Of a stretch of DNA of 64,000 bases, positions 4,612-57,275 are shown in pieces; position 1 is the first letter of the stretch, and every line of letters begins with the position of its first letter. A program made the position numbers and the translations under genes. The DNA is from Bacillota bacterium. GTDB lineage: Bacteria > Bacillota > Clostridia > Saccharofermentanales > Saccharofermentanaceae. Under the pieces are notes generated by a model. That model searched no databases and was not told the DNA's origin. It saw only the letters and a program-made list of their open reading frames with translations. The stretch spans positions 1 through 64,000 of the forward strand of contig DAIPXZ010000001.1 in the NCBI GenBank assembly GCA_036782995.1. The letters run 5' to 3'.

Positions 4612-5721
4612 CTAACTGGTTCTGGCGACAAAGCCAAGGTGGTCTCCGAAAACAAAAGCTGCGGATACACCAAATGCGATACTGAGCAATTTACCTTTGT
4701 CAGACATTGATTTCACCATACTGAACATCGGAACGGAATTGGCTAAATTGGCTATCATTCCCGAGCAAGCGACATCGTCTACGCCAAGCTTTTTACCGGC
4801 TTTATTCAGAGGCTTCTTGAATGCCTTTGTTATCCATTTTGCCATTGGATAAGCACCCATCAAGATAATACCGATTTGACCACAAACCAATAAAGCCTCA
4901 TCCAAATTCGTCATTCCTGTACTCTCGTTGACGGTAGACATAACACCAAAAACAGGCAAGAATATTCCGGTTATCTGCTGAACCACCGCAATTGCGGTCA
5001 ACATTGTGCCGACAATGCAGACGCCGGTACCAAAAATGTTGAAGCCTTTTATCATTGCTGTTGGTATGAACCATAACCCAAGACAGAGCAAGGCAGCAAA
5101 GATTATTACCGGGATAAGATTAATCAATATTGTGACAAAACTAATCGTATACAAAGTGATATTCATGAGTAAGCCGCCTGCGATACAGCCGAAAGGAACA
5201 CCTACCAGGCCTGCCAAAACACCGGCTGCCAGATATGGCCTGTCCTTTTTCTCGAGAATGCCCAATGCGACAGGAATTGTAAAAGTGATTGTTTGCCCCA
5301 TAACCGTTCCGAGAATCAAGCCCGAAAACATGGTCATCGTTTCATTTTTCGCCATACTTTGCGCCAAAGCATATCCACCCATATCACTGGATAAAAGAGT
5401 CGTCGCAAACATGGAGGGATCGGCACCAACAAGTGTGAAAATCGGAGTAATTATTGGCCCTAACAGCATGGAAAAAATAGGTGCGGCGGCGTATATACCA
5501 ATAAGTGCAAGACCAATCGGCCCAATGGCATTAAATCCATTATCAAATTCTTGACCGTAGCCTCTCTTGTTTCCTCGTATTTTATCGATTGCACCGATAA
5601 GCAAGAAAACCATCATTATCAGCATAATAATGGAGTTGATTGAGATGTTTTCACCAAACAGCTTCAGAGAATCAATAAAATTGTTGTTTTTTATCGTGCC
5701 AACCAGTTCACTAAAATCCAT
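4612..5721 (-). CDS. eutH: ethanolamine utilization protein EutH-family permease
   Basis: Resembles Salmonella EutH by eye along its length (GADPSMFATTLLSSDMGGYALA, IPVALGILEKKDRPYLAAGVLAGLVGVPFGCIAGG, AFGVSAAFVFGDHLGF). I moved the start to ATG 5721 (MDFSELV), which is preceded by AGGAG. Confidence 0.9.
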   Translation of the reverse strand: MDFSELVGTIKNNNFIDSLKLFGENISINSIIMLIMMVFLLIGAIDKIRGNKRGYGQEFDNGFNAIGPIGLALIGIYAAAPIFSMLLGPIITPIFTLVGADPSMFATTLLSSDMGGYALAQSMAKNETMTMFSGLILGTVMGQTITFTIPVALGILEKKDRPYLAAGVLAGLVGVPFGCIAGGLLMNITLYTISFVTILINLIPVIIFAALLCLGLWFIPTAMIKGFNIFGTGVCIVGTMLTAIAVVQQITGIFLPVFGVMSTVNESTGMTNLDEALLVCGQIGIILMGAYPMAKWITKAFKKPLNKAGKKLGVDDVACSGMIANLANSVPMFSMVKSMSDKGKLLSIAFGVSAAFVFGDHLGFVARTS

Positions 5722-6051
5722 CTTGTCACTCCTATAATGCATATATTGTGCTGTAAATCTGTTATACAGATATTTATTCATTGAATAGTGAGTTTATGTA
5801 ATGAATGATTCTGATTGTTGCAGGAGTTGCACCGAGTTTGCACACAGACAGCTTTCGTCTGTTGATGCATGTAGAAAAATACGACCTTCAATGGTTAATG
5901 AATACGGAAAATATCGCGAGCTACTTTTCGTGCTCGGCATTGAATTTGTTAAGTACTTTTAATATATCATAATATAAATTATTCTACAAGGAATTTACTT
6001 TTGCGTTCTTCGCATTACTTCTCATTTGCTAAAAGAATTCTTCAACGCAAA

Positions 6052-8217
6052 TTAACTGTGCGACACATAGCCACCATACACATCATCCATGCTCACGGGC
6101 TCTCCCGTTTTGAGCAAATCCAGTAGCCATTGGCCGTCATCGCCTTCACTTAGAAGGAATCCGTAATAGGCAATATAGGGTGCGCGATAAATCAGATATT
6201 GTCCACAAGTGCCGACAAGCTCAAATGGCTCGGCAATGTAGGTCGGAATCGTTGCGTATGCGTCTTCGGTCGTAATCATTACGACTTCGCCTTGATAATC
6301 TGATGCATTGTAGTATCGTAAGGTGTCGCCCCATAGGGGAGCACCGGCAAAGCCATCATTTACCGTCCGATATGTACGAGTTTCGTCAATCACGCGCAAG
6401 TTGCGAGCAAGCACGAGGTTTTCATCACCGACCACATAGACCATCGGGGTATCATATTGGTCAACGATGTCAGCAAGAATCTCCAGCTCCTCTACGTTGG
6501 TGTGATTGCGGCAGAGAGAATAATAGGAAATGCCGTTCGAACAAATGATACCGAGTATGACGCACAATATGATGGTTTTAGAGAAGAGGCGGTCTTTCGG
6601 CAAGTCTTCGATGTATTGTCCGACAAGCAGGAGCATGCCCATGAAGATAAAAATCACGTAACGCGTCTCGAACACTTCCGACCCATATGTTGTATACGAA
6701 AAAAGTAAGATCGCTATATTGGAGAGAATGAGAATAATCATGGAAAAGAGTGGCGTATCGACATCTTCTGCTTTAAGGTGTTTCTTTGTCGCGATGATGC
6801 TTGCAACGAGAATGAATAGACCGACGGCAAAGAAAACACAATATGCGATTCCTTTCAGTGAAATAATCGATATGTCCGTAGTACTTGGGAACATGGATGT
6901 GATGTCAAAGTATCCGAATAGCAGACCTTTAGCATTGCTTACGACTTCGGTTTTGGCTATCCATGCGATACTGGTATCGCGACTTTCGACGTGAAAAAAG
7001 CGAGCGGCTATGACTTTGCCTACTACTATCATGATACCCGTAATGGCAATGAACCATGTTTCGCGACAGAATACGGATTTGATATCATTTTTAACGAATG
7101 CACGTATTACGATATAGAGTGCAAATGGCGCGACAGTCATGATGAGCATAAATAATCCCGTGGAAAGGCCTGTCAGAAACGAAAGAACAAGACAAATAGC
7201 TGCCCATGGGAGTATTTCACGCATTTTTGCTTTGCGCGCCAGACGGGTCACGACTAAGGCGAATGCCAAAAGGAGTATGACACGATAGCTGTACGAGGCC
7301 ATGAATCCATATACCATGGCAAAATAATTCAATGCATTGTTGGTGTCGAAGGTCGTAAAATAAGGCGTTATGATGAGCGCGATTGTAAGAAGACGTGAAG
7401 ATAGCTGCCACTTCATTTCGCGTGTGAGTCCGGCAACGGCGGCAACAATAATTCCGGTCGTTAAAATGTTGCATAGACCATATGCCGTGAATACGTCACC
7501 AATCGCTCCATAGACGAGCCATGCCATAACGACAGAAGAATCCATTCCGAGGCCGGTCTGATAGGACCAATCATTCGGGAAAAGAGTCTTTTGGTTCCAT
7601 AATTCCTTAACAAAGAGATAGCATGACGATGCATCGAAGCCCAAATGGTTTCGAAGCATGGTGAGATTTACGAATACAATGAGAGCGAGTTCGATTCCGA
7701 CGACGCATAGGAGTACGATGTCGATTGGTTTTAGCTTTTGACGCAGGGTTTGTTCTGCGGCTGTCGTCGCGTTTTCTTTGCGCTTAAATGCCCAGAATTT
7801 ATTGAGCAAGAAGTTCATCGGGATGGTAATCACGAGGTTAATCAACGGCGCAATAAGGTCGGAGATATGGAGACATTCGACCCACACGAACAAAAGCACT
7901 GTGCTGAGAATGAATGTGAAGCCATAGGACGTAAATGATTTGGCATACGCCGTGATGTGTTCTTTGAAGGTTTTCTTTTGGCCGTCTGAAAAGATGAATC
8001 GGCTGTTCCAAATATAGGCATTGGTGACGCTAATCACAAAGCCTAAGATATTGCCGATTTGGTAATGCCAGCCGAATGCGAGGACGCATAAATAGTAGAT
8101 GCCTTGTGAAATCAACGTATTCGAAACACCAACCAAACCGAACTTGATGAATTGCATCAAGGGCTTGATCTTTGGGTGGTTCATAATTTGCGATAACCAG
8201 TTTGTCATTTTACTCAT
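6052..8217 (-). CDS. GtrA-like domain fused to a large polytopic membrane protein (putative GT-C-type terminal glycosyltransferase)
   Basis: 721 aa. The N-terminal ~150 aa are GtrA-like (FIKFGLVGVSNTLISQGIYY...NFLLNKFWAFKRK). They are followed by many hydrophobic helices and a ~130-aa soluble C-terminus. The start overlaps the rfbH stop (ATGA at 8214-8217). Confidence 0.65.
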   Translation of the reverse strand: MSKMTNWLSQIMNHPKIKPLMQFIKFGLVGVSNTLISQGIYYLCVLAFGWHYQIGNILGFVISVTNAYIWNSRFIFSDGQKKTFKEHITAYAKSFTSYGFTFILSTVLLFVWVECLHISDLIAPLINLVITIPMNFLLNKFWAFKRKENATTAAEQTLRQKLKPIDIVLLCVVGIELALIVFVNLTMLRNHLGFDASSCYLFVKELWNQKTLFPNDWSYQTGLGMDSSVVMAWLVYGAIGDVFTAYGLCNILTTGIIVAAVAGLTREMKWQLSSRLLTIALIITPYFTTFDTNNALNYFAMVYGFMASYSYRVILLLAFALVVTRLARKAKMREILPWAAICLVLSFLTGLSTGLFMLIMTVAPFALYIVIRAFVKNDIKSVFCRETWFIAITGIMIVVGKVIAARFFHVESRDTSIAWIAKTEVVSNAKGLLFGYFDITSMFPSTTDISIISLKGIAYCVFFAVGLFILVASIIATKKHLKAEDVDTPLFSMIILILSNIAILLFSYTTYGSEVFETRYVIFIFMGMLLLVGQYIEDLPKDRLFSKTIILCVILGIICSNGISYYSLCRNHTNVEELEILADIVDQYDTPMVYVVGDENLVLARNLRVIDETRTYRTVNDGFAGAPLWGDTLRYYNASDYQGEVVMITTEDAYATIPTYIAEPFELVGTCGQYLIYRAPYIAYYGFLLSEGDDGQWLLDLLKTGEPVSMDDVYGGYVSHS

Positions 8218-9551
8218 GAAATGGCCTCAATAATGGTTTGCGCCATGTAATCAATCATGGCGTCCGTCATGCCCGGATAGACTCCGACCCAGAAGGTGTC
8301 ATTCATGATTTGGTCAGTGACAGAAAGGTCGCCGACGACGCGATAGCCTTCGCCGCTCTTTCTCATCTCGTCAAAGCAAGGGTGACGGGTGAGGTTGCCG
8401 GCAAACAGCATTCTTGTCTGTACGCCCTTCTTTTCTACGTATTGGACGACTTCATTTCTCGAAACGCCCGGTTTGCAAGTAATCAGGAATCCGAACCAGC
8501 TCGGGTCGGCGTTTTCAGCAGCAACCGGCAGAATGAGCTTATCTTCGTAAGGAAGGAGCGCCGCCTTTAGGCGTTTGAAGTTCTCTTTTCTCTTCTCGAC
8601 AAAGGTCGGGAATTTCTGAAGCTGTGCGCATCCGATTGCCGCCTGCATATCAGTGGCTTTGAGGTTATATCCAAAATGAGAATAGACATACTTGTGGTCG
8701 TAACCAAGCGGCAGCTCACCGTATTGCTTGTCAAAGCGATGGCCGCAAAGATTATCCATACCAGACGGGCATACGCAATCACGGCCCCAGTCACGCATGG
8801 AGCGGGCAATCTTATTGAGAAGCGGATCATTAGTGTATACGGCACCGCCCTCACCCATAGTCATGTGATGCGGCGGGTAGAAGCTCGATGTGCCGATATC
8901 ACCGATGGTTCCTGTGAAATATTCTTTTCCGTCGAGCGTGTACTTAGAGCCTAAGGCGTCGCAGTTGTCTTCGACGAGGAAGAGGTTATGCTTTACACAG
9001 AAAGCCTTGACGGAAGCAAGGTCAAACGGATTGCCGAGTGTGTGAGCAATCATGACGGCCTTTGTTTTCGGAGAAAGGGCCTTCTCGAGCATTTCAACAT
9101 CGATATTATATTGCGGAATGGTAAGGTCAACGAATACCGGAATTGCACCATATTGAATCATTGGTGTAACGGTTGTCGGGAAGCCGGCAGCCACTGTGAT
9201 TACTTCGTCACCGCGCTTTACAGCACGTTCGCCGAGAAGCGGCGAGGTCAAGGTCATGAATGCAATAAGGTTCGCAGAGGAACCGGAATTTACCAGCGAG
9301 CAGTACTTGATGCCAAGATAGTTGGCGAGTTTCTTTTCAAATTCATCGGTATAGCGACCGGATGTGAGCCAGAATTCGAGCGAAGAATCGACAAGATTGA
9401 GCATTTCGTCGCTGTTATATACTCGGGAAGCATACGGAATGCGGTTCCCCGGAGTAAAGGGCGGTTTTTGATTGTGATAAGTATCACAGTACTCCTTCAC
9501 CATCTCGAGAATGGATTCTTTTGCTTGTTGTTCTGACATGTTTTCAAACAT
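8214..9551 (-). CDS. rfbH: CDP-4-keto-6-deoxy-D-glucose 3-dehydrase (E1), RfbH/DdhC, DegT/DnrJ/EryC1 family
   Basis: 445 aa. IPYASRVYNSDEMLNLVDSSLEFWLTSGRYTDEFEKKLANYLG...SLVNSGSSANL...VEDNCDALGSKY is the RfbH pattern. Confidence 0.9.
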   Translation of the reverse strand: MFENMSEQQAKESILEMVKEYCDTYHNQKPPFTPGNRIPYASRVYNSDEMLNLVDSSLEFWLTSGRYTDEFEKKLANYLGIKYCSLVNSGSSANLIAFMTLTSPLLGERAVKRGDEVITVAAGFPTTVTPMIQYGAIPVFVDLTIPQYNIDVEMLEKALSPKTKAVMIAHTLGNPFDLASVKAFCVKHNLFLVEDNCDALGSKYTLDGKEYFTGTIGDIGTSSFYPPHHMTMGEGGAVYTNDPLLNKIARSMRDWGRDCVCPSGMDNLCGHRFDKQYGELPLGYDHKYVYSHFGYNLKATDMQAAIGCAQLQKFPTFVEKRKENFKRLKAALLPYEDKLILPVAAENADPSWFGFLITCKPGVSRNEVVQYVEKKGVQTRMLFAGNLTRHPCFDEMRKSGEGYRVVGDLSVTDQIMNDTFWVGVYPGMTDAMIDYMAQTIIEAIS

Positions 9552-10626
9552 GGTTATTCTCCTCCCAATCGGCGGTAAATGCCGAAATTTGTTGATTCAT
9601 TATTTCATTGACGGATTGACCGTCACGATAGACCTTTGCCCATTCGACAGAAGCCGATACAGCCTCGTTAATATGCCATGTTGGCTTCCAGCCGAAAGTC
9701 TTCTTAATCTTTGAGCAATCGAGCTTCAGGAAGTTCGCCTCATGCGGGCCGCCCACAAATTGGTTCTCCCATGTCATGCCCTCGCCCCACGCGTCGCAGA
9801 ACAGATTGACCAAATCGCCGGTTGTGACACAATCGCAATCGTCTGGTCCTACATTATAGTAGTCGGCAAAAGACTTATCTTCATACTGTTTCTTTGCAAT
9901 GAGCAAATAGGTAAAAAGCGGCTCGAGGACATGCTGATATGGCCTTGTCGAATGTGGATTACGCACGACGATGGCATGCTTTGCCAAGGCAGCGCGGATA
10001 GAGTCCGGGATGATGCGGTCGACGGCAAAATCACCGCCGCCAATGACATTACCTGCACGTGCCGTCGAAATCGCAACGTCACGATCGGCAAAAAAAGACA
10101 ATTTGTAGCTATGTGTGACGAGCTCCGAACAGGATTTACTGTTCGAATACGGATCAAATCCGTCGAGCGGGTCAATTTCACGATAGCCCCATTCCCATTC
10201 GTTGTTATGGTAGACCTTATCCGTCGTAACATTCAAAAAGGACTGCACCGTATCGCTCATACGAACACATTCCAAAATATTGACCGTGCCCATGACGTTC
10301 ACTTCGTATGTATATGCGGGGCGAACGTAAGAGTCACGAACAATCGGCTGTGCCGCCATGTGAATGACGATTTCCGGTTTTGCCGCCTGAAAAGCCTTTG
10401 AAAGAGCATCTGTATCGCGGATATCTCCGATGACAGAAGTCATTTTTTCATCAAGCTCGAGCATGCTAAATAAAGACGGCTCCGTCGGCGGATTCAGTGA
10501 ATATCCGGTCAATTCGGCGCCTGCGTCGACCAATATCTTCGAGAGCCACGCGCCCTTAAATCCGGTGTGTCCAGTCAGGAACACTCTTTTCCCTCTGTAA
10601 AAATCCAGCATTACCATGTTTTCCAT
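9544..10626 (-). CDS. rfbG: CDP-glucose 4,6-dehydratase
   Basis: FYRGKRVFLTGHTGFKGAWLSKIL...NVTTDKVY... The start is ambiguous (ATG 10626 or 10617) and either choice overlaps the rfbF 3' end. Confidence 0.9.
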   Translation of the reverse strand: MENMVMLDFYRGKRVFLTGHTGFKGAWLSKILVDAGAELTGYSLNPPTEPSLFSMLELDEKMTSVIGDIRDTDALSKAFQAAKPEIVIHMAAQPIVRDSYVRPAYTYEVNVMGTVNILECVRMSDTVQSFLNVTTDKVYHNNEWEWGYREIDPLDGFDPYSNSKSCSELVTHSYKLSFFADRDVAISTARAGNVIGGGDFAVDRIIPDSIRAALAKHAIVVRNPHSTRPYQHVLEPLFTYLLIAKKQYEDKSFADYYNVGPDDCDCVTTGDLVNLFCDAWGEGMTWENQFVGGPHEANFLKLDCSKIKKTFGWKPTWHINEAVSASVEWAKVYRDGQSVNEIMNQQISAFTADWEENNHV

Positions 10627-11384
10627 GGGGCATTTCCGGATGCCCACATTTCCTCCAGTTCCATTTTATCGCGCTGTGTATCCATGCACTTCCAGAAGCC
10701 TTTATGCTTAAAGGCGTCCAATTGACCTTCCTTGGCCAGCTTTTCGAGCGGAGCTTTCTCGAAAACCGTCTTGTCGCCTTCGATATAATCGAAAACCTTC
10801 GGCTCGAGAATCATGTAGCCGCCGTTGATTAAGCTGCCATCCGCTTCGGATTTCTCACGGAATGATTGAATACATGCATTGCTCGCGATATCCAAAACAC
10901 CAAAACGCTGGCCGACGCTAACCGCCGTCAACGTAGCAATATGATTGTTTTTCTTATGAAATGCGATTAATTTTTCGATATTTACATCGGAAACACCGTC
11001 ACCATATGTCAAAAGAAACGGCTCTTCGCCGATATAGCGAGAGATTCTCTTGATTCGACCGCCGGTCATAGTATTGAGGCCGGTGTCCACGACGGTTACG
11101 CGCCACGGTTCGGCAAAGTTCGAATGGATTTCCATTTTATTCTCTGCGGTAAAATCGAAAGTGATATCCGAACGGTGGAGATAATAGTCAGCGAAAAACT
11201 CCTTAATCACGTGCTGTTTGTATCCACAGCAAATGATAAATTCATTAATGCCGTAATTCGATATGGTCTTCATGACATGCCATAACATCGGCATGCCTCC
11301 GATTTCGATCATAGGCTTCGGCTTCAAGTGGCTTTCTTCGGAGATACGTGTTCCGAACCCGCCTGCTAATATGACTGCCTTCAT
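10611..11384 (-). CDS. rfbF: glucose-1-phosphate cytidylyltransferase
   Basis: MKAVILAGGFGTRISEESHLKPKPMIEIGGMPMLWHVMK... gives 257 aa from ATG 11384, which is preceded by GAGGTGAAGG. The upstream 27 codons of the track ORF are not homologous. Confidence 0.9.
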   Translation of the reverse strand: MKAVILAGGFGTRISEESHLKPKPMIEIGGMPMLWHVMKTISNYGINEFIICCGYKQHVIKEFFADYYLHRSDITFDFTAENKMEIHSNFAEPWRVTVVDTGLNTMTGGRIKRISRYIGEEPFLLTYGDGVSDVNIEKLIAFHKKNNHIATLTAVSVGQRFGVLDIASNACIQSFREKSEADGSLINGGYMILEPKVFDYIEGDKTVFEKAPLEKLAKEGQLDAFKHKGFWKCMDTQRDKMELEEMWASGNAPWKTW

Positions 11385-11492
11385 GTCCTTCACCTCGTTC
11401 TTTTCGCACTTCACAGCTATGAAAATGCAAGTGCTTCTATTCGTAAAATCCCGAAAATCGGGCATTTACCACCAGTGTGAACCATCTCACGT

Positions 11493-11522
11493 ATTATACG
11501 AGCATATGGTTTCGATTGTCAA
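11493..11522 (-). promoter_or_regulatory. near-consensus sigma-A-type promoter TTGACA-18-TATAAT overlapping the GT2 stop codon
   Basis: Minus strand reads ...GAAAATTGACAatcgaaaccatatgctcgTATAATacg. The -35 is at 11517-11522 and the -10 at 11493-11498. A small hairpin CCCGA-ttt-TCGGG plus ATTTT follows in the 134-nt gap before rfbF. Confidence 0.45.
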
Positions 11523-12691
11523 TTTTCCCCGACAGAATCTTTACTTTCCTTGCTGTCCTTGTCTTTCTTGTCGGCAGATTTTTTCGTTGTTTTCTTTGTG
11601 CTCTTTGGCTTCTCGGGTTTGGATTGCTCCTCTTCTTTATCCGTCTTCACGGCCTTGGTTTTTCTGACCTTGGTCGGTTCTTTTGCCAAAAGGTTGGTTT
11701 TCAATGGTGCCACGATTGCTTCTGCTTTCGCTTCAATCTCCGCAGACACGGTTTGCTTATCAAAGTTGATTCGTTCTTCTTCGATGACAAGCGGACGTTT
11801 CATCATACGGTTATTAATGGCAAGAATGTACTCGCCGAGGAAGCCGATGAAAAAGATTTGAACAGAGCCTAAGATAATAACGGCCAATAGAATCGGCAGG
11901 TTACCCGCCGGGAATGAATTCCACATACAAAGCTTCAAAATGAAGTATACAAGACCGGCTACGAGGCTCAAGGCGGCACATAGTGCACCGGCGATGGTCG
12001 CGATGCGAAGACCGACCTTGGTATACGATGTTATCGAGAGCATAGCCGCATCATAGAGTCGATAGAAGTTATTAGAGCTCTTTCCGCGTTCGCGTTTCGG
12101 CTGATCATAAGGAATGTCCTTGCGTTTCCAGCCCATCTCGGCAACAATACCGCGCAAGAACGGGGTTGGGTCATCGAGGCGACGCAGCACATCAATAAAC
12201 TCCTTATCGTAAAGGCCGGAGCCTGTGAAATGTTCAATTTGTTCGACGTCAGAAAGCTTCTTGATTAGCTTATAGTAGCAGGTGCGAAGGAAACGGAGAA
12301 TTTTGTTTTCGTGACTCGTCGTCTTAATTCCGATGACGATTTTATAGCCATTTTCCCACTCGCGCACGTATTTAACGATATTTTCAATCGGGTCTTGGAA
12401 ATCGCAAACCATAGTAACCGTGCAATCACCTGTCGTTTGCAAAAGGCCGTAGTATGGCGAATTGAATTGTCCGAAGTTGCGGACGTTAAAGATTGTCTTG
12501 ATATGTGGATTTTTATGGCAGATTTCACGAAGTAAAGTGCGTGAGCTATCTTTCGAATCGTTATCAATAAAGATGAGCTCCCAATCGTAGTTTGCCAGCT
12601 CGTTGGAAAAAAGATTCGTTATCGCTTCACTCATCGGAATGATATTTAATTCCTCGTTATAACACGGAATTAAAATGCTGATTTTCTTCAT
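11519..12691 (-). CDS. family-2 glycosyltransferase, polyprenyl-phosphate glycosyltransferase type (GtrB/CsbB/ArnC-like)
   Basis: MKKISILIPCYNEELNI...IFIDNDSKDSS...DFQDP. There are two C-terminal TM helices (LRIATIAGALCAALSLVAGLVYFI, LPILLAVIILGSVQIFFIGFLGEYI), then a ~85-aa Lys/Glu-rich tail. Confidence 0.85.
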   Translation of the reverse strand: MKKISILIPCYNEELNIIPMSEAITNLFSNELANYDWELIFIDNDSKDSSRTLLREICHKNPHIKTIFNVRNFGQFNSPYYGLLQTTGDCTVTMVCDFQDPIENIVKYVREWENGYKIVIGIKTTSHENKILRFLRTCYYKLIKKLSDVEQIEHFTGSGLYDKEFIDVLRRLDDPTPFLRGIVAEMGWKRKDIPYDQPKRERGKSSNNFYRLYDAAMLSITSYTKVGLRIATIAGALCAALSLVAGLVYFILKLCMWNSFPAGNLPILLAVIILGSVQIFFIGFLGEYILAINNRMMKRPLVIEEERINFDKQTVSAEIEAKAEAIVAPLKTNLLAKEPTKVRKTKAVKTDKEEEQSKPEKPKSTKKTTKKSADKKDKDSKESKDSVGEN

Positions 12692-12701
12692 AACTGTATC
12701 C

Positions 12702-13619
12702 TCACTTCTCTGTCTTAATCCACTCTAGCGTTTGTTTGATACCTTCTTCAAAGGATGTTTGCGGTGTGAAACCAGTATCGGCAGTCAGCGTATCAATATC
12801 GGCACACAGGTACATGACTTGTTTGTCATAATAGGGCACTTCGCCAAAACCAATGTCCGCTTGTGGTGCGGTCAAATCCCGTATTGTCGTGATATAGTCT
12901 CGAAGCGGCTGCACTCGCCCTCCACCCAATGCATAAACGGCGCCGTCCGGAGCCTTTTCGCAAGCAAGCATAAAGGCACGTGCCGCGTCATCGCAGTATA
13001 AATAGTCCCACATCTGCTCGCCCTTGGTGTATGTCGGGCGTTCCCCTGCGAGAAGCTGACGGATACCAGACATCACCATCGTATGCTCACCGTCATGTGG
13101 CCCGTATACGCTCAATATACGCATCCAGATATGACGAATATGCAAAGCATTACATTCCACTCGTGTCATCTGTCCTGCGCACAGTTTCGCAATACCATAT
13201 CCCGTCTCCGGAAAAGTCGGCGTGTCAGGGGCAAGCTTCGTGCCATCCGGTACTCGACCGTACTCCGCCTGACTTCCCGCGCCAATAAAAACTTCACATC
13301 CGATACGTGAAGCCAATCGAACCGCTTCGACTGCCGCACGCGCATTATCGAGCTGCAGGGGCATATCATTGCGTGCGTCACCATGTGTGCCGCCCCATGC
13401 CAAATGGAAGAAAGCATCGTATTTTTTGTCCGTATGAAAAGACGAAAATGCGCTCATTTCCACCGCCTCGGTGGTCACCAAGGGATGTTTCGGAATGCCG
13501 GCATTGCGGGTAGAAGATGGGTTCGTTAAAACCAATACCTCAACCTCATTTCGAATCAGTTCGCGAATAATCGCGAGCCCAATCATGCCTGTCGCTCCGG
13601 TAATAACCGCTCTTTTCAT
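12702..13619 (-). CDS. NAD-dependent epimerase/dehydratase-family SDR (candidate sugar 4-ketoreductase)
   Basis: MKRAVITGATGMIGLAIIREL has the Rossmann GxxGxxG. A YxxxK-type motif sits in GYGIAKLCAG. 305 aa. Confidence 0.8.
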   Translation of the reverse strand: MKRAVITGATGMIGLAIIRELIRNEVEVLVLTNPSSTRNAGIPKHPLVTTEAVEMSAFSSFHTDKKYDAFFHLAWGGTHGDARNDMPLQLDNARAAVEAVRLASRIGCEVFIGAGSQAEYGRVPDGTKLAPDTPTFPETGYGIAKLCAGQMTRVECNALHIRHIWMRILSVYGPHDGEHTMVMSGIRQLLAGERPTYTKGEQMWDYLYCDDAARAFMLACEKAPDGAVYALGGGRVQPLRDYITTIRDLTAPQADIGFGEVPYYDKQVMYLCADIDTLTADTGFTPQTSFEEGIKQTLEWIKTEK

Positions 13620-13622
13620 GAA

Positions 13623-15455
13623 TCAGTTTGTCTCCAATCGTTTTGCTGCTTCATATTCTTCTCGCTCGAGGAACGGGAACATGTCATCGAGTGATGGTGA
13701 TACGATTTTGCCGTCCGGAAGCACCTTCGAAGAGAGCTTCGGCGAGAAATTCTGCTTCGGGTCAACAACGACTTCACAGAAGATTGGGCCTTCTGTTGAC
13801 AAGAGCTTCTCGGTAATCTCCTTTACGTCGTCCAAATTGTCGAGACGGACAAACGGAATATCATAGGCCGCGGCGAGCTTTTCGGGTGACGGGAACGTAA
13901 GCCCCGAGCCCACACCAATGCCCAAAAGCGGCGGTTGGAAGAAGTTCGTCTGTGTTTGACGGATGGAATGATATCCCTCGTTATTTAAGTAGACGATTTT
14001 TATGTTCATTTTGTTGCATCCAACGGTCGCCAATTCCTGCAAATTCATTTGGAAGCTGCCGTCTCCATCGATGCAAATGACGCGCTTGCCTTTATTCGCC
14101 ACAGCGGCGCCAATGGCGGCCGGAAAACCGTAACCCATGGCGGCGCAGCCAGAGTTCGTGTAAAGGCGTTGATGTTCTTTTACTACGGCGGATTGGAAGG
14201 TCATGACGCAGGCGCTGCCATTACCGCAAATCACGGTCTCATCGTCGGACCAGAGCTTACTGAATTCCGTGACAAAAGCGTATGGATTCATCGGTTGTTT
14301 AACCGCATAGTATTCCGGCATGGTGGCAGGATATTGAAGGAAAACTTTTCTTGCGTGGTCGAGCCAAGCCTTATGATCAGCGTTCTTCGCCGCGCCGATT
14401 GCATAGGTATTCGTCGATTTTTCAAGCGCACGAAGCAGTGAAGGAATCACATCGCCGCAATTTGCATGAATCGGCATATCTGGTGTGACGGTCGGTTTCT
14501 TGAGCTCGTTCTCGTCGATATCAACGACAATTTTGAAGGCATCCTTCGCAAAATCACGATAGTTATAGCTGATGATTCGGATGTTCATACGGCATCCAAG
14601 AACAAGTAACAAATCGCAGCCCTGAACGACAAAGTTTCCACCACGAACACCAATGGTACCCGGACGGCCGCAAAAGCAAGGATTTGCATCTGCTATCAAA
14701 TCGTTGGAGTTCCATGCAGTGACAACCGGAATGCTAAGCTGCGAAACCAGTTTGCTTAATTCCTCGCGCATCCCGGAGAGGTGAACTCCCGTGCCAACGA
14801 GGATACACGGCTTCTTGGCCATAGCAATTTTGGAAAGAATCTCAGGTGTGAGGTTCTCATCATATGTTGGATTGAGTGGTGTATCCAGTTCGTCAGGAGA
14901 GAACCCTGCGAGCTCATCGGTTTCAACAATCGCCGCTTGGATATCGAGTGGGATATCCAGCCATACCGGACCCGGGCGGCCGTTTGTAGCAAGATAGAAT
15001 GCTTTTTCCAAATGATAACGAATGGACGTCGGTTCGGTAATCATAACCGCGTATTTCGTCATATTCTTTACGGAGTCGACAATATTGAATTCTTGGTCGC
15101 CGAGCTGACGAAGCGGAACCGGAGTCGACCATATTGTCGTTTCCCTTTTCACTTGGCCGGAAAGGACAAACATCGGGATAGAATCAAGCCATCCGCCCAT
15201 GACGCCCGTGATGGCGTTCGTCCCGCCGGGGCCGCTCGTTACGCAAAGCGAAGCCATTTTTCCAGTCATACGTGCATAGCTTTCCGCCGCAATGGCCGAT
15301 GCCTGCTCATGGTGGTTATAGATGGTATGAAGTCCGGGATGATGGCCAAGCGCATCGTTCAGGTGCATGGCACCGCCGCCTGTGACGGTGAAGTTGTCTT
15401 CGATTCCTTGCGCAACAAGAAAATCCGCAATGAGATGGGCAATTTTTTGTTTCAT
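13623..15455 (-). CDS. thiamine-diphosphate-dependent enzyme, acetolactate-synthase-like (YerE-like candidate)
   Basis: 610 aa. HHEQASAIAAESYARMTGKMASLCVTSGPGGTNAITGV and GDGSFQMNLQELATV...NNEGY (ThDP-binding GDG...NN motif). Confidence 0.85.
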   Translation of the reverse strand: MKQKIAHLIADFLVAQGIEDNFTVTGGGAMHLNDALGHHPGLHTIYNHHEQASAIAAESYARMTGKMASLCVTSGPGGTNAITGVMGGWLDSIPMFVLSGQVKRETTIWSTPVPLRQLGDQEFNIVDSVKNMTKYAVMITEPTSIRYHLEKAFYLATNGRPGPVWLDIPLDIQAAIVETDELAGFSPDELDTPLNPTYDENLTPEILSKIAMAKKPCILVGTGVHLSGMREELSKLVSQLSIPVVTAWNSNDLIADANPCFCGRPGTIGVRGGNFVVQGCDLLLVLGCRMNIRIISYNYRDFAKDAFKIVVDIDENELKKPTVTPDMPIHANCGDVIPSLLRALEKSTNTYAIGAAKNADHKAWLDHARKVFLQYPATMPEYYAVKQPMNPYAFVTEFSKLWSDDETVICGNGSACVMTFQSAVVKEHQRLYTNSGCAAMGYGFPAAIGAAVANKGKRVICIDGDGSFQMNLQELATVGCNKMNIKIVYLNNEGYHSIRQTQTNFFQPPLLGIGVGSGLTFPSPEKLAAAYDIPFVRLDNLDDVKEITEKLLSTEGPIFCEVVVDPKQNFSPKLSSKVLPDGKIVSPSLDDMFPFLEREEYEAAKRLETN

Positions 15456-15492
15456 AAGTCTTCTCTCCAGTGTATGAAATGCGTATTGACGC

Positions 15493-17103
15493 TTATTCGA
15501 CGAGGTCTTTCTCGTAATATGATTCGGTCACAAAAGTAATGTCCAGACCGTTTCTTACTCGAGCGAGACTCTTCTTCGTATCTTCATTAATCTCGATGGC
15601 CTTCGTCTTACTGAAGCTGTGTGCCATGTTGGGATTGACATAATCTGGTGTTTCCGCCGTCGTATATCCATCAAAGCCCGCAAGTGCGATGCTGTTTACA
15701 CCGATTTTTGACGAAAGCTTCAAAAGCATAATCAGCGGATTATCTACAATCATGGCATCTTCGTCAAGAAGACTGCTGTAATTTAAGGTGTAATCGAAAT
15801 CACCAAGTGCACGTGTGACATTACTCGTCGCAATCGTGCGAATCGAATCCGGAATCATGGAGAGCTGTGATGACAATTGAACATAGCGTTTCGCATTGCT
15901 CATGACGATATAGTCGACACAATAGCTCTTCGGGAGAAAGTTCACGGCAATTACTACCGGGTGATTGGCCTCGATATAGGCATTAACCCGATCTTTATCA
16001 TCAATGACACGATTGCCCGGCCCCAAGAGCAGGATATTCTTTCCGGAAAGCTTGCGTGTCAGGCGTTCGATGGCCTTGCCGTCGTCGCATTCATTTTTTT
16101 GGTAATTAACATAAAGCTCCTCGGCGTATTTCTGATCGTAAAGAAGCTTCTTGTCAGGCGTAATGGAGTCCAGGATTGCATTGATGTCCTTCACGGATAG
16201 CTTCTTTTTGTTTGTTAAATAGGAAACGTAATTCGGGTGGCAGTCATTCGATGCCGAGAGGAAAAACTTAAAGCTGTATCCCCACGGTGTCTTCTTATAG
16301 AAATCAAGCATCGTTACGTCGATGGCCTCGAGTAACTGACTCTTCACGTATTTCTTGCCGCAATAATCATTCATGTAGGTAGCAAGGAGCTCAATTGGCG
16401 CATTGCCGGCGCTCTTGCCCATGCCATAGAGAGTGCCGTCAATTAACAGAGTACGGTCGACTTCATTTTGAAGAAGCTCAATGCAATTTGCAAAAGCGAG
16501 CTGAAAATTGTTGTGGGAGTGATATCCGATGGCTACCGACGGCTTCAATTTCGCATCTGCCATCTGGAAATAATGTTGGAGCTTCTCTTTATGGAGAAGG
16601 CCGTATGTGTCTACCAATGAAAAAGCAAATGGTTCGAGGTCATTTACGAGCCCCATCAGTTCATCAAAATCTTCATCACTATATGCCGTGATGGACACCG
16701 CTTGCGAAAAAACTTGGTATCCCAACGCCTTAAGCTGCTTACAGTATGCAATCGCATCGTGCATGATTTCTTTCTTAAAAATCACGCGAATACCATCAAG
16801 GAAGCAGTCTTTGCAAGGCATAATATTCGAAATATCACATGTGCCGTAGTCAATCATACCGACAACCATCGTGTTGCCCTTATTCAAATGACCATAGATT
16901 TTATTCACCGACAAGGTGTCCGGCATAATGCTACGGTTAATATCGAATTCACGACGGTCATCAAGGAAACCGACTTCGATGACCTCAAGATTGGCTCCAA
17001 TGATACGCTCGAAAATATTGACCATATTGTTGTTGCCAAATGCCCAATCGTTGACGTAACCGCCATCACGCAACGTGCAATCAAGAAGTATTTTATTGCC
17101 CAT
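15493..17103 (-). CDS. DRE-TIM (HMGL-like) aldolase domain fused to a C-terminal DUF115/MAF-like domain
   Basis: 536 aa. The N-terminal LDCTLRDGGYVNDWAFG...GYHSHNNFQLAF is the HMGL-like metallolyase pattern. The C-terminal ~230 aa (ILLLGPGNRV...VMSNAKRY...IALAGFDGY) resemble DUF115-type domains. That second call is from memory and needs an HMM check. Confidence 0.6.
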   Translation of the reverse strand: MGNKILLDCTLRDGGYVNDWAFGNNNMVNIFERIIGANLEVIEVGFLDDRREFDINRSIMPDTLSVNKIYGHLNKGNTMVVGMIDYGTCDISNIMPCKDCFLDGIRVIFKKEIMHDAIAYCKQLKALGYQVFSQAVSITAYSDEDFDELMGLVNDLEPFAFSLVDTYGLLHKEKLQHYFQMADAKLKPSVAIGYHSHNNFQLAFANCIELLQNEVDRTLLIDGTLYGMGKSAGNAPIELLATYMNDYCGKKYVKSQLLEAIDVTMLDFYKKTPWGYSFKFFLSASNDCHPNYVSYLTNKKKLSVKDINAILDSITPDKKLLYDQKYAEELYVNYQKNECDDGKAIERLTRKLSGKNILLLGPGNRVIDDKDRVNAYIEANHPVVIAVNFLPKSYCVDYIVMSNAKRYVQLSSQLSMIPDSIRTIATSNVTRALGDFDYTLNYSSLLDEDAMIVDNPLIMLLKLSSKIGVNSIALAGFDGYTTAETPDYVNPNMAHSFSKTKAIEINEDTKKSLARVRNGLDITFVTESYYEKDLVE

Positions 17104-17289: not shown

Positions 17290-18270
17290 TCACTTCTTCG
17301 TTTTCTCCTGCTTGGCTTCAGGGTTTCGTTCTCCTTGTAGGAGTTTTGTCGTTGAAAATACTCGAACCGCGTCCCAAAGCTCTCTTCGCCTTGTCGATTG
17401 TAAATGTGGGAATGCACGCAGGAAACGCTTCTGTTCTTTTCCGAGTGCGGCGTATAGTGTGCGCAACCGGCCCTCAAGGGATGCTCTCTGTTCTTCGTCG
17501 TCTGATTTATTCCGGATTTCATCAAGATACTCCTTGGCTTCTTCAATTCGAAGCTTCGCCCCATCGATTCGTTGCCTTGTTCCTTCGGAAAGAGCGTCTT
17601 TCTGATCCTTCATCGCCGCCACAAGAACATCTTGCTTCTCCTTCACGGTTTCCTTCGTCTTTTCCGCCTTGGCAAGTACGGTCAATGTGCGATCAGCAAC
17701 ACCCGCTCCGATTTTGTCGGAAACGTTGTGTAGTGCCGTCGCCACTTCCTGAATTTGCGCAATACGACGATTCATCTTGACGACTGCCAATACTGTCGCG
17801 ATGAGGTCTGCGAGGAAAACGGCACCAAAACCGCTGTTAATAATCCATAGCACGTATTCCGGAAGCGGGTTCACAGCTGCATTGATAATCGGATGTACGA
17901 CGTCGACAACGAGGACACATGCGAGACCCCAAAGAATGGAAAACGAAAGGCAAATATATCCGCCAAGATTGAACTTTTTATCGGAGTAATCCCACCATGT
18001 TTGGTGAAACAGCTTCTTCATTAGGAACCCCCCAACGAGCTCGACCGACGTGGTTAATAAACAAGATACGAGGAAAAGTAATGCCAGATTATCCTTGAAA
18101 GGATTAATTACAAGAAGAACAAGATTGACACCAAATCCGTAAATCGGGCAAACCGGTCCGAACAAGAATCCACGGTTCACGAATTTGCCTTCTTCCAAAG
18201 CCGCATAAGCAACCTCGGTGCACCAGCCGATAAAAGCGTAAACAAAAAAGAATAGTACAAACTTCGCCAT
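17290..18270 (-). CDS. membrane protein (CmpB-like / putative ABC-transporter type IV family) with a charged coiled-coil C-terminus
   Basis: The N-terminus MAKFVLFFFVYAFIGWCTEVAY...GPVCPIYGFG has 4-5 TM helices. The C-terminal ~150 aa are rich in E/K/R heptad-like sequence. The family assignment is from memory. Confidence 0.5.
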   Translation of the reverse strand: MAKFVLFFFVYAFIGWCTEVAYAALEEGKFVNRGFLFGPVCPIYGFGVNLVLLVINPFKDNLALLFLVSCLLTTSVELVGGFLMKKLFHQTWWDYSDKKFNLGGYICLSFSILWGLACVLVVDVVHPIINAAVNPLPEYVLWIINSGFGAVFLADLIATVLAVVKMNRRIAQIQEVATALHNVSDKIGAGVADRTLTVLAKAEKTKETVKEKQDVLVAAMKDQKDALSEGTRQRIDGAKLRIEEAKEYLDEIRNKSDDEEQRASLEGRLRTLYAALGKEQKRFLRAFPHLQSTRRRELWDAVRVFSTTKLLQGERNPEAKQEKTKK

Positions 18271-20093: not shown

Positions 20094-21488
20094 ATGAAGA
20101 ACAAAGAACTATACAAAATTGCTTTGGCCCTCGCCGTGCCGATGATGATTCAAAATGCTATCACTAATATGGTTGGTATGGTCGACAGCATCATGGTCGG
20201 AAGCCTTGGCACCGAAGCCATCACCGCTGTCTCCATTATCGGACAGCTTATTTTCGTCTTTAATCTCGGCATCTTCGGTTGCCTCTCCGGCCCCGGTATT
20301 TTCGGCGCACAATACTTTGGCAAGGGCGACCTCGAAAATGTCCGCAACACTTTCCGATTGAAGCTTTGGCTCTCCACACTCGTGGTTTTACTCGGCACGC
20401 TCGTTTTTATTTTCGGTGGAGACTTTCTCATTGCCCGGTATTTGCGAGGAGAGGCCGCCGACGTCGATTTGTCACTAACCGTTTCCATGGCCAAGGATTA
20501 CCTCGCGATTATGCTCTTCTCATTTCTGCCCTTTGCGTACACACAAGTATACGCAGGTACTCTACGCGAAACAGGAAGCTCCATTCCCGCCATGGCAGCA
20601 GGAATCGTCTCTGTCGTGACAGATATTGTTCTCAATTATTTGTTCATCTTCGGAAAATTCGGATGCCCACAGCTTGGTGTCCGTGGTGCCGCACTCGCGA
20701 CGGTCATTGCTCGTGTCGTCGAGTTTGTCGTGCTCGTCTCTTGGGTGCATTGGAACAAACATCGCTATGAGGTCATTCGCGGTATCTATCGTACCGTCCT
20801 TTTGCCCATTAAGCTCGCTCTCACTATCGTAAAAAATGGCTTGCCAATATTTCTAAACGAATTTATGTGGGCGGCAGGAATCGCAGTCATGACGCAATGC
20901 TATTCCATCCGTGGCATGGATATCGTTCCGGGGCTCAATATTGCCAATGTTTTAATGAATTTGTTTAATGTCGTTTTTATCGCCATGGGAAATGCCGTCG
21001 GTATTCTTTCGGGGCAACGTCTCGGTGCCTCAGAATTCGATCGTGCGAAAAAAGATGCCTTTGCACTCGCCCGATTCACCGGCCTGCTTTGCCTCGGATT
21101 AACAGTCATCTTATTGGGTTTATCCCAGTTCTTCCCGAACCTATACCACACATCAGATCAGGTGCGTCATCACGCGACACTTTTTATCATGATTCAAGCT
21201 GCTTTTTTACCCGTTCAGGGCATACTCAACGCCCTCTATTTCACCATTCGTTCTGGCGGTAAAACCATGATTACATTCTTGTTCGACAGTGTTTATTCCT
21301 GGGTAATTACTGTGCCGATTGCATTTCTTCTTTCCAATTTTACCGGGATATCCATCTTCATCATCTTCACCATCATCCAATGCTGTGATGTGATAAAGCT
21401 CTTGGTCGGCTGGTACCTCGTAAAAAAAGGCGTTTGGATTGTAAACATCGCTAATGCAAAAGGAAGCTCGGAGTCTGCTTCTACTTAA
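20094..21488 (+). CDS. MATE-family efflux transporter
   Basis: 464 aa, 12-TM pattern. The N-terminus LALAVPMMIQNAITNMVGMVDSIMVGSLG is typical of MATE. Confidence 0.9.
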   Translation: MKNKELYKIALALAVPMMIQNAITNMVGMVDSIMVGSLGTEAITAVSIIGQLIFVFNLGIFGCLSGPGIFGAQYFGKGDLENVRNTFRLKLWLSTLVVLLGTLVFIFGGDFLIARYLRGEAADVDLSLTVSMAKDYLAIMLFSFLPFAYTQVYAGTLRETGSSIPAMAAGIVSVVTDIVLNYLFIFGKFGCPQLGVRGAALATVIARVVEFVVLVSWVHWNKHRYEVIRGIYRTVLLPIKLALTIVKNGLPIFLNEFMWAAGIAVMTQCYSIRGMDIVPGLNIANVLMNLFNVVFIAMGNAVGILSGQRLGASEFDRAKKDAFALARFTGLLCLGLTVILLGLSQFFPNLYHTSDQVRHHATLFIMIQAAFLPVQGILNALYFTIRSGGKTMITFLFDSVYSWVITVPIAFLLSNFTGISIFIIFTIIQCCDVIKLLVGWYLVKKGVWIVNIANAKGSSESAST

Positions 21489-22635
21489 CCTTCGGAGGCA
21501 ATTTCAAAGAGGGAATCTTTGGCAATGCCAGACCCTTTTTTCTGTGTTCCTTTAAATTCAGATAGACCAAAATACGAATCGTGTCGATGATGTTTTCCTT
21601 CGTTTTGGCGTCAATTGATTTTGTCGCTTCGAGGATAGAATTCGCCTTATCACGCCACGTATCAGAGATTTCAAACACATTCTCCGTTCTGCTCGCTTGG
21701 ACAATATGGTAAATCGTATCGGCCACCGCGCGGCGTTTTTCGTCAGAAAGCGTCGCCACCCATGCATTCACCGTATTTACACGAATCTCCGCCTGCGGCG
21801 ATACCTCAGACGCATAGATGAAATCCGTCGCACCAACATACCAGGTAAACGGATCGTGTTGCGAAAGCCACATCGAAGTGCTCTCTACGATTTTGTGATT
21901 CGTCGGTATCTCCAAAAGCTGGCCAACCAATGAGGCCTTCGGAATATAATGCTCCACCTTATCACGAATTGGCTCGTATTCGGGAAGCTCGTGTATCGGA
22001 ATCTTGTACCCCGGACCATCAAAAGAATAGACCTTTTCAATTCGTTTCTGCACATCAAGTGGTGCATATGTTGCTGCGTACATCGCGCAATTTCCGCCCT
22101 TTGAATGTCCACCAACGAGAAGCTTTATTTTTTTCGGAAGATGTTTTGCCGCGTCCAAAAGATATGACAGTGCGTCTGCCTGGCAACCGACAGGAAACAT
22201 CGCCGCCATGTTAAAGTCTTCCTTCCATCCAACGAAGGTTCCGTTCGTTCCGCGATACGAAATATATGCCATCTCGTCGTCGATATTGCATGTCACGGCC
22301 GCAAATTGCTCTTCTTTCCCCAGGTCTTCAATCTCATGAAACCGCGTTAATTCAATCAATGAAAACCGTTGGCTTACTCGAATCGCTTCATAAAGCAGAA
22401 AACACTCGTCCGGAGAGGCAATTCTTTCAATTAGCGGAATCGCCGCCTCTTTCGCGGGCAACTCCCTGATGAGAATCTTTGAAGGACAAGGAGACCCTTT
22501 CCTGAGATAGTCCCCAATCACGAGCTCCCAATGGAAATAGCTGATATGAGATAGAATTACAGCATCCACCGAATTAAACGGTAACTCTTCAAAGGTACGT
22601 TGTTCTTCTTCGGCATATTGGATAATACTTCGCAT
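21481..22635 (-). CDS. DUF2974/Mbeg1-like alpha/beta (lipase-fold) protein
   Basis: LLVGGHSKGGNCAMYAA nucleophile elbow. I moved the start to ATG 22635, behind GGAGGG. Confidence 0.6.
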   Translation of the reverse strand: MRSIIQYAEEEQRTFEELPFNSVDAVILSHISYFHWELVIGDYLRKGSPCPSKILIRELPAKEAAIPLIERIASPDECFLLYEAIRVSQRFSLIELTRFHEIEDLGKEEQFAAVTCNIDDEMAYISYRGTNGTFVGWKEDFNMAAMFPVGCQADALSYLLDAAKHLPKKIKLLVGGHSKGGNCAMYAATYAPLDVQKRIEKVYSFDGPGYKIPIHELPEYEPIRDKVEHYIPKASLVGQLLEIPTNHKIVESTSMWLSQHDPFTWYVGATDFIYASEVSPQAEIRVNTVNAWVATLSDEKRRAVADTIYHIVQASRTENVFEISDTWRDKANSILEATKSIDAKTKENIIDTIRILVYLNLKEHRKKGLALPKIPSLKLPPKVK

Positions 22636-22750
22636 CGTGAATCCCTCCACACATCATAAACACTAGAAGTGGTATTAATTTGCAAAATAATTTTACCATA
22701 TTCTCGCCATCATTTTTACGCATTCAATCATTTATCTTATGAATGGTATC

Positions 22751-38828: not shown

Positions 38829-38831
38829 TTT

Positions 38832-51678: not shown

Positions 51679-51714
51679 AAATACTCCTTATTGCACAAGT
51701 CTCGAACTTGTAGC

Positions 51715-57183: not shown

Positions 57184-57275
57184 GTTGGGTTTATCCCTCC
57201 TGTCGCGAAAGCGTGATCGCCTTACTGAGGCCTTCGCTAACGATATCTCTACTAGAGCAATTATAGTCAAACTAT

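Follow-up and report, generated by a model that had tools for sequence, protein, structure and literature searches.

Can a Gram-positive bacterium build a C-branched 3,6-dideoxy sugar and, if so, from what would it make the branch? The question is raised by a group of genes in a stretch of 64,000 nucleotides from a Bacillota bacterium of the family Saccharofermentanaceae (GenBank assembly GCA_036782995.1, contig DAIPXZ010000001.1, positions 1 to 64,000), which we call the window. A preliminary description of this DNA had noted rfbF, rfbG and rfbH, three genes for the synthesis of CDP-4-keto-3,6-dideoxyglucose, beside genes for a thiamine diphosphate (ThDP)-dependent enzyme and a short-chain dehydrogenase/reductase (SDR), and had proposed that a two-carbon unit from pyruvate is added to the sugar, as in the yersiniose pathway of Yersinia pseudotuberculosis. 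All five genes are indeed present and contiguous on the minus strand between 8214 and 15455, but they belong to a longer unit. We read the region 6052-17103 as a self-contained cassette for a CDP-activated, C4-acyl-branched 3,6-dideoxyhexose, with an aldolase-fed branch of more than two carbons and delivery by a lipid carrier to an envelope polymer, an account that we hold with moderate confidence. That the product is a C4-branched 3,6-dideoxyhexose made by the ThDP enzyme, whatever the length of the branch, is the best reading of the locus and a good deal more secure.

According to the open reading frame (ORF) listing, the cassette consists of eight closely packed genes, given here in order of transcription and followed by a promoter-like site:

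15493-17103, minus strand: two-domain HMGL-like aldolase, 536 aa, first gene

13623-15455, minus strand: ThDP enzyme, 610 aa, with TPP_enzyme N, M and C domains, second gene

12702-13619, minus strand: extended SDR, 305 aa (Pfam Epimerase, E = 4.3e-36), third gene

11519-12691, minus strand: GT2 glycosyltransferase of the GtrB/ArnC type, 390 aa (Pfam Glycos_transf_2), fourth gene

10611-11384 (ORF to 11465), minus strand: RfbF, glucose-1-phosphate cytidylyltransferase, 257 aa (TIGR02623), fifth gene

9544-10647, minus strand: RfbG, CDP-glucose 4,6-dehydratase, 367 aa (TIGR02622), sixth gene

8214-9551, minus strand: RfbH/E1, CDP-4-keto-6-deoxyglucose 3-dehydrase dependent on pyridoxamine 5'-phosphate (PMP) and a [2Fe-2S] cluster, 445 aa (NF011936), seventh gene

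6052-8217, minus strand: GtrA-domain membrane fusion protein, 721 aa (Pfam GtrA_DPMS_TM), eighth gene, its start overlapping the rfbH stop

11493-11522, minus strand: perfect sigma-70-type promoter-like site, TTGACA-18-TATAAT, 12/12 consensus match, between the GT2 stop and rfbF

Taken as the whole cluster, the range 8214-15455 thus cut off two genes that are functionally essential in our reading, those for the aldolase and the GtrA fusion, while the GT2 gene, although it lies inside that range, was missing from the earlier gene list.

The early steps of the pathway can be read from curated protein models. RfbF, RfbG and RfbH score 397.5, 440.2 and 718.6 bits against the NCBIfam equivalogs TIGR02623, TIGR02622 and NF011936, whose respective cutoffs are 300, 278 and 423 bits; since all three scores exceed the curated cutoffs, these are not chance matches. 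The RfbF alignment begins at residue 28 of the ORF, and its probable start is the ATG at 11384, preceded by a Shine-Dalgarno-like GAGGTGAAGG; public gene calls agree on a protein of 257 aa. In an alignment to the structure of the Yersinia E1 enzyme (3bcx; E = 2.8e-158, 58% identity), RfbH keeps the His-His motif (H228/H229) in place of the aminotransferase Lys, and its residues Cys197, Cys259, Cys261 and Cys269 align with the E1 cluster cysteines. In line with what is described for E1 enzymes (PMC8987622 among others), these four are the presumed [2Fe-2S] ligands. Judged on these matches, the core pathway to CDP-4-keto-3,6-dideoxyglucose is present and RfbH is a true E1 dehydrase.

We then considered what the ThDP enzyme does with this intermediate. 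All three TPP_enzyme domains (N, M and C) are recognized by Pfam, and the ThDP-binding motif is intact and canonical (GDG464-X24-NN491), with E50 as the catalytic Glu. The best NCBIfam matches are equivalog models of acetohydroxyacid synthase (AHAS), all of them far below cutoff: TIGR00118 gives 331 bits against a cutoff of 538, and the remaining AHAS models 230-315 bits against 738-1084. When relatives with solved structures in the PDB were ranked by bit score, the closest was JanthE from Janthinobacterium sp. HH01 (8rph; 367 bits, E = 1.6e-108; full-length alignment with 35% identity), compared with about 242 bits for plant AHAS, 234 bits for E. coli AHAS I and 216 bits for PpYerE (5ahk), the solved YerE homologue, which thus scores below AHAS. 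The window contains no ilv genes and no AHAS small subunit. On these scores the enzyme is not an acetolactate synthase, in agreement with the preliminary description, which had called it only acetolactate-synthase-like. JanthE is a YerE-like carboligase that takes non-activated ketones and uses 2-oxo acids from C3 upward, its donors including pyruvate and 4-hydroxy-2-oxovalerate; it has an unusual CDG ThDP motif (PMC12188165, PMC12247030; structures 8rph/8rpi/8rpj), in contrast to the canonical GDG of the window enzyme. With 231 bits to PpYerE and 219 bits to AHAS I, JanthE is itself at a similar distance from both, so that "YerE-like" is partly a functional label. Most likely, the ThDP enzyme is a C-branching sugar carboligase of the JanthE-related family, as predicted from these comparisons.

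The strongest evidence that the enzyme acts on a CDP-sugar is its conserved neighborhood. A search for homologues yielded 8000 scored candidates, all with E<=1e-30, the best 120 of them 63-68% identical, and relatives occur in at least 597 GTDB species genomes. We kept 80 related loci and counted neighbors within 10 kb of the ThDP gene; the closest 37 of these loci, at 52-66% identity, are almost all from Clostridia. RfbF, RfbG or RfbH lies near the ThDP gene in 54 of the 80, across many phyla, and a GT2 homologue in 41 of the 80. Among the closest 37, the two-domain aldolase is found in 29, the SDR in 25, usually directly after the ThDP gene, RfbH in 22 and a GtrB-like GT2 in 21. The closest relative among the loci (L007, from a metagenome-assembled genome (MAG) of Clostridium sp.) has the order RfbF-RfbG-RfbH-GtrA-aldolase-HAD-ThDP-SDR-GT2-GT87-GT87. 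Carriers of the cassette among cultured bacteria include Robinsoniella peoriensis, Clostridium thailandense PL3, Desulfosporosinus metallidurans, Lachnospiraceae bacterium A4 and Paenibacillus sp. P8. As to the host, identical proteins with the same gene set occur on 18 public contigs, two MAG assemblies among them, labeled "Bacillota bacterium", in line with the earlier assignment to a Firmicute.

Further out in the same set of relatives, the distant loci L044-L086 (for example L056, L064, L065 and L075) combine the ThDP gene with a dehydroquinate-synthase-like gene, an aldolase-like gene of about 275 aa, a FabG-type SDR, RfbF/RfbG and a GtrB-like GT2, mostly without RfbH. They come from such hosts as Sphingomonas, Bradyrhizobium, Methylotenera, Legionella and Planctomycetes, and seem to represent another cassette for CDP-sugar branching, one that has apparently not been described.

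The length of the branch is where the aldolase becomes important. Its gene ends 38 bp upstream of the ThDP start, and of the 37 closest loci 29 keep the two side by side. A DRE-TIM/HMGL-like metallo-aldolase domain makes up the N-terminal part; its residues R12, D13, H195 and H197 align with the enolate-stabilizing Arg and the metal-binding residues of DmpG. For the C-terminal part (about residues 340-536) Pfam gives no significant match; it has an MptE/Maf/sialyltransferase-like nucleotide-binding fold with many invariant residues, and the two-domain architecture of about 535 aa is kept in thousands of homologues. According to Steitz et al. (2022, PMC9306805), pathways in which a reductase and a YerE-type enzyme have an aldolase next to them lead to longer acyl branches, of four carbons in erwiniose, six in caryophyllose and seven in gastriose, and the carboligase ErwE takes 4-hydroxy-2-oxo acids while rejecting pyruvate. 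In the window, too, an aldolase gene adjoins those of the ThDP enzyme and the reductase, so that the predicted branch exceeds the C2 unit of yersiniose. The SDR has intact GxxGxxG (GATGMIG) and YxxxK (YGIAK) motifs and passes no NCBIfam equivalog model; we predict that it is an NAD(P)H-dependent reductase of the branch ketone, in a role like that of YerF or ErwF.

Compared with the yersiniose A pathway of Y. pseudotuberculosis (DdhA-D/AscA-D, YerE, YerF), the window shares the core enzymes, with E1 58% identical, and in both the 4-keto-3,6-dideoxy intermediate passes to a ThDP enzyme and a reductase. The window differs in having no E3 reductase (AscD/DdhD), an additional conserved aldolase, and a predicted polyprenyl-phosphate carrier instead of an O-unit. 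The scheme for erwiniose, caryophyllose and gastriose (ErwI, ErwE and ErwF; PMC9306805) likewise has genes for a ThDP carboligase, its NAD(P)H reductase and an aldolase beside those for CDP-4-keto-3,6-dideoxyglucose, and the gene logic of the window fits this aldolase-fed arrangement better than that of yersiniose. There are differences here as well: the aldolase of that scheme is either BphI-like with a BphJ-like dehydrogenase or, in M. marinum, of the HpcH/citrate-lyase type, whereas that of the window is a distant DRE-TIM enzyme fused to an MptE/Maf-like domain; in addition, the window cassette has a JanthE-related ThDP enzyme and no E3, belongs to a Bacillota host without lipopolysaccharide (LPS), and apparently relies on delivery by GtrB, GtrA and a membrane transferase. 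The inference of a longer branch is accordingly weaker than for Pectobacterium, because the aldolase is distant from BphI/ErwI, lacks a partner dehydrogenase and carries an unexplained extra domain.

Since the E1 retains its [2Fe-2S] cysteines, an electron donor is still required, and the earlier remark that no E3 is visible holds in the window: none of the ORFs in its 64 kb joins a plant-type 2Fe-2S motif with ferredoxin-NADP reductase (FNR) motifs, and Pfam together with gene-call annotation gave no match to Fer2, FAD_binding_6 or NAD_binding_1 among nearly all of the larger ORFs. A motif search of the window for 4Fe-4S ferredoxins as possible E1 reductants also found none, and no ORF combining 2Fe-2S and FNR motifs was seen in the 80 related loci. 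A precedent is SpnQ of the spinosyn forosamine pathway, a PMP/[2Fe-2S] 3-dehydrase that has no dedicated E3 partner and relies instead on general ferredoxin or flavodoxin reductase pairs (PMC8987622). SpnQ belongs to an actinomycete antibiotic pathway and has a dTDP-2,6-dideoxy substrate; the window enzyme, by contrast, is closely orthologous to the Yersinia E1, which is CDP-specific. By analogy with SpnQ, the E1 electron donor is probably a general ferredoxin or flavodoxin. RfbF/G/H/S have also been listed without E3 as the predicted CDP-paratose set of Clostridium flagellar glycosylation islands (PMC13317340). With the 80 loci, SpnQ and the Clostridium island set in agreement, the absence of E3 looks systematic in these Bacillota cassettes and not like a gap of this window, as far as the window and the related loci go.

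How would the finished sugar reach the cell surface? Compared with structures in the PDB, the GT2 matches the GtrB protein sll0501 (E = 3e-37) and ArnC (E about 1e-27); its NCBIfam matches, to PgfS and ArnC, are both below cutoff. The protein has two C-terminal transmembrane (TM) helices (residues 233-251 and 267-285) and a Lys-rich tail, and by these features it is a polyprenyl-phosphate glycosyltransferase of the GtrB/ArnC type. The last gene of the cassette encodes a GtrA domain (PF04138, GtrA_DPMS_TM; E = 3.8e-23, residues 25-144 of 721), which in the TM profile gives way to about 10 TM segments, with a soluble part at the C-terminal end. As a word-indexed homologue search gave a full-length match of the 721-aa fusion to itself only, an exhaustive HMMER search was used next; the membrane domain (residues 151-721, 571 aa; 6052-7767, minus strand) proved to belong to a family of 532 matches at E<=1e-3, with 22-35% identity, no Pfam match, and an invariant Asn and Asp just past the first TM segment. 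In two of four neighborhoods of membrane-domain homologues (L087 and L091) there are lipid-carrier glycosylation genes, one holding a GtrB-size GT2 with deoxysugar genes and the other a GT2, UbiA, GLF and GtrA. We predict that the fused membrane domain is an extracytoplasmic, GT-C-like transferase and the GtrA part a flippase.

In the closest relative, L007, GT87 genes of the GT-C class stand at the place of the fused membrane domain, from which we infer a three-component lipid-carrier route. A multi-component model of glycosylation is described for Gram-positive wall polymers in a review (PMC8035078). The GT2 and the GtrA fusion together suggest that the sugar is loaded onto a lipid carrier, flipped and attached outside the cell. 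With the transmembrane glycosylation systems GtrA/GtrB/GtrC, CsbB-GtcA-YfhO and ArnC-ArnE/F-ArnT, the window shares a GtrB/ArnC-like GT2, a GtrA-family domain and a large polytopic membrane protein; it differs from them in its putative CDP-sugar donor and in a flippase fused to a putative transferase of a family without Pfam entry.

Elsewhere in the window, at 38094-41426 on the plus strand, the gene for a PIG-L-family deacetylase (244 aa) precedes one for an 864-aa YfhO-family GT-C protein (PF09586, E = 4.6e-60); about 20 kb from the cassette, this is a second enzyme of extracytoplasmic glycosylation, separate from it. Genes for an Mbeg1-like and an EAL-domain protein lie nearer to the cassette, at 21481-22650 and 32540-34159, both on the minus strand; both families also flank the membrane-domain homologue in locus L089, a co-occurrence that may be coincidence.

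Put together, these assignments give the following model. RfbF forms CDP-glucose, RfbG converts it to CDP-4-keto-6-deoxyglucose, and the E1-type RfbH strips the 3-OH to give CDP-4-keto-3,6-dideoxyglucose, three steps with support at the family level. The E1 would be reduced by a general ferredoxin/flavodoxin system, with no dedicated E3. The DRE-TIM aldolase would condense pyruvate with a small aldehyde to a 4-hydroxy-2-oxo acid, which the ThDP enzyme would decarboxylate, adding the acyl-anion equivalent to the C4 ketone and so producing a tertiary alcohol with a side chain of more than two carbons, and the SDR would reduce the side-chain ketone. The GtrB-like GT2 would then transfer the sugar from CDP to undecaprenyl phosphate, the GtrA domain would flip the lipid-linked sugar, and the fused membrane domain would link it to its acceptor, either a glycopolymer of the wall or membrane or a protein.

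A number of observations weigh against parts of this model. To our knowledge, no GtrB-type enzyme uses a CDP-sugar; the donors in known GtrA/GtrB/GtrC-like systems are UDP- or GDP-sugars, so that CDP-sugar use by a GtrB-type enzyme would be new. No similarity of the membrane-domain family appeared in hhalign comparisons with the YfhO protein of the window and a GT87 protein of L007, or in a profile search of the PDB, and the GT-C assignment of the domain accordingly has its basis in context. The aldolase is distant from pyruvate aldolase structures of the BphI/DmpG type (E = 9e-9), scores 74 against a cutoff of 229 with the 4-hydroxy-2-oxovalerate aldolase model, and has a Tyr in place of His21 of DmpG; Pfam and gene calls find no gene for a partner acylating acetaldehyde dehydrogenase (ErwJ/BphJ) in the cassette, and the substrates we name for the aldolase are a guess. 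JanthE, to which the ThDP enzyme is closest among characterized proteins, accepts pyruvate, which makes a C2 branch possible (PMC12188165, PMC12247030). The SDR, which matches no characterized reductase family, could be a 4-ketoreductase giving a linear sugar. Finally, many related loci (L007, L012, L015-L019, L022, L026, L028-L034 and others) have a HAD-family phosphatase of about 220 aa between the two-domain aldolase and the ThDP gene, suggesting phosphorylated intermediates there; absent from the window, it hints at chemistry outside the proposed model. The window was searched for this and the other accessory genes of related loci (DHQ-synthase-like, FabG-type SDR, aldolase-like of about 275 aa, NeuB-like), and none was found.

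These points bear on how the rival explanations are to be judged. Were the ThDP enzyme to place a pyruvate-derived acetyl group on C4, reduction by the SDR would give a 1-hydroxyethyl branch (CDP-yersiniose A or an isomer), and the aldolase would have some other task, for instance in elaborating the sugar at a later stage, or one connected with its C-terminal domain. The set of RfbF/G/H, ThDP enzyme and SDR is the same as in the Yersinia logic, pyruvate is among the donors of JanthE, the closest characterized relative, and some related loci (for example L071, L072, L078 and L082) have the ThDP, RfbF/G/H and SDR genes without the two-domain aldolase. These aldolase-less relatives are, however, more distant, at about 50% identity; the aldolase gene lies immediately upstream and is retained in 29 of the 37 closest loci, and pyruvate was rejected by ErwE, the sole aldolase-associated system to have been tested (PMC9306805), so that we regard a pyruvate-derived branch as unlikely. 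The proposal of the preliminary description is affected accordingly: its C4-branched dideoxy sugar on a Gram-positive envelope stands with regard to the CDP-4-keto-3,6-dideoxyglucose core, the branching enzyme and the sugar context in 54 of 80 loci, but the pyruvate donor and the C2 branch are not borne out as they stand, in view of the conserved aldolase and the specificity of ErwE. Alternatively, the aldolase might act on the nucleotide sugar itself, its C-terminal domain binding the cytidine nucleotide and its DRE-TIM domain putting a pyruvate enolate on the C4 ketone, after which the ThDP enzyme would decarboxylate or ligate the 2-oxo-acid side chain; in a variant, the C-terminal domain would be a (pyro)phosphokinase making a phosphorylated intermediate. 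Such a reaction is without precedent, the published system works with a free 2-oxo acid (PMC9306805), and in several loci, for example L020, L022, L025 and L033, the two-domain aldolase occurs with no CDP-glucose genes within 10 kb. We find this version decidedly improbable.

The two remaining explanations take the ThDP enzyme out of the branching reaction altogether. The product could be a linear 3,6-dideoxyhexose of the paratose or abequose type, with the SDR as C4 ketoreductase, while the ThDP enzyme and the aldolase modify another position of the sugar or serve the synthesis of an unrelated small molecule. This is what RfbF/G/H and an SDR (RfbS) are predicted to make, as CDP-paratose and without E3, in the Clostridium flagellar islands (PMC13317340), and the SDR of the window has no specific family assignment. 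It matches no RfbS/RfbJ-type NCBIfam model either, although NCBIfam may have none; moreover, the order ThDP-SDR-GT2 is conserved in one operon with the CDP-sugar genes, and the ThDP family occurs nearly always in sugar-nucleotide or glycosyltransferase contexts. We give a linear product little credence. Least credible, to the point of being nearly negligible, is an ordinary acetolactate/acetohydroxyacid synthase that stands beside sugar genes by chance. Source annotations do name relatives "acetolactate synthase large subunit", and AHAS models are the best NCBIfam matches, but every equivalog score is far under its cutoff, the match to JanthE is much stronger than that to any AHAS, the window holds neither a small subunit nor ilv genes, and the sugar-gene context is conserved across phyla. 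We thus retain the aldolase-fed, C4-branched sugar as the preferred reading.

On one side of the cassette lie genes for a CmpB-like membrane protein, a two-component system and MatE, on the other that for EutH; they are unrelated to it, and none is conserved in the relatives. The CmpB-like gene (17290-18270), upstream of the aldolase, was considered as a member of the cassette and rejected, being conserved in none of the related loci. Directly downstream, on the same strand, lies the gene for the ethanolamine permease EutH (4612-5781, minus strand; E = 2e-119), with no other eut genes seen nearby; that EutH might supply acetaldehyde for the aldolase is pure speculation. Within the cassette, the site at 11493-11522 may act as an internal promoter for rfbF-rfbG-rfbH-gtrA, in which case the cassette would be read as two units. 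The overall number of promoter-like sites in the cassette region is at the level of shuffled sequence, and the TTGACA-18-TATAAT site is to be taken as a consensus match only. Farther away in the window, a 1337-aa ORF (53257-57270, minus strand) and the neighboring ORFs of 383 and 490 aa (50527-53187, minus strand) have no Pfam match at E<=1e-5.

In the literature that we searched there is no report of a C-branched 3,6-dideoxy sugar in gut Clostridia. A possible precedent, yersiniose-type sugars in Eubacterium saburreum, found no usable support in the literature and was dropped. Branched-chain sugars made by ThDP enzymes have so far been described from Gram-negative LPS, mycobacterial lipooligosaccharides and actinomycete antibiotics (PMC9306805 and other literature cited here). 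The novelty of the present locus lies in its host, a member of the Bacillota, in the JanthE-related family of the ThDP enzyme, in the fused aldolase, in the apparently systematic absence of E3 and in the predicted lipid-carrier delivery. A bolder statement would be that Clostridia of the gut and the environment commonly bear an undescribed higher-carbon C4-branched 3,6-dideoxy sugar, built in ways without precedent: an aldolase fused to an MptE/Maf-like domain that gives a new 2-oxo-acid donor or acts on a cytidine-linked sugar, an E1 that draws on general ferredoxin or flavodoxin and is free of E3, and a GtrB-type enzyme that uses a CDP-sugar and feeds a new transferase family without Pfam entry. 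In this full form we consider it rather doubtful.

The cassette also offers candidates for new biocatalysts, namely a relative of JanthE with a GDG motif and an aldolase to which an unusual domain is fused, and it raises the question of how E1-type dehydrases are reduced in anaerobes that have no E3. If our reading is true, Bacillota, too, would carry ThDP-made branched sugars on the cell envelope. For the ThDP enzyme as for the two-domain aldolase, homologues at 58-68% identity run into the thousands, and many come from Lachnospiraceae and other gut Clostridia; with homologues in such numbers, a rare and probably immunogenic sugar could be a common, hitherto unseen surface feature of gut commensals.

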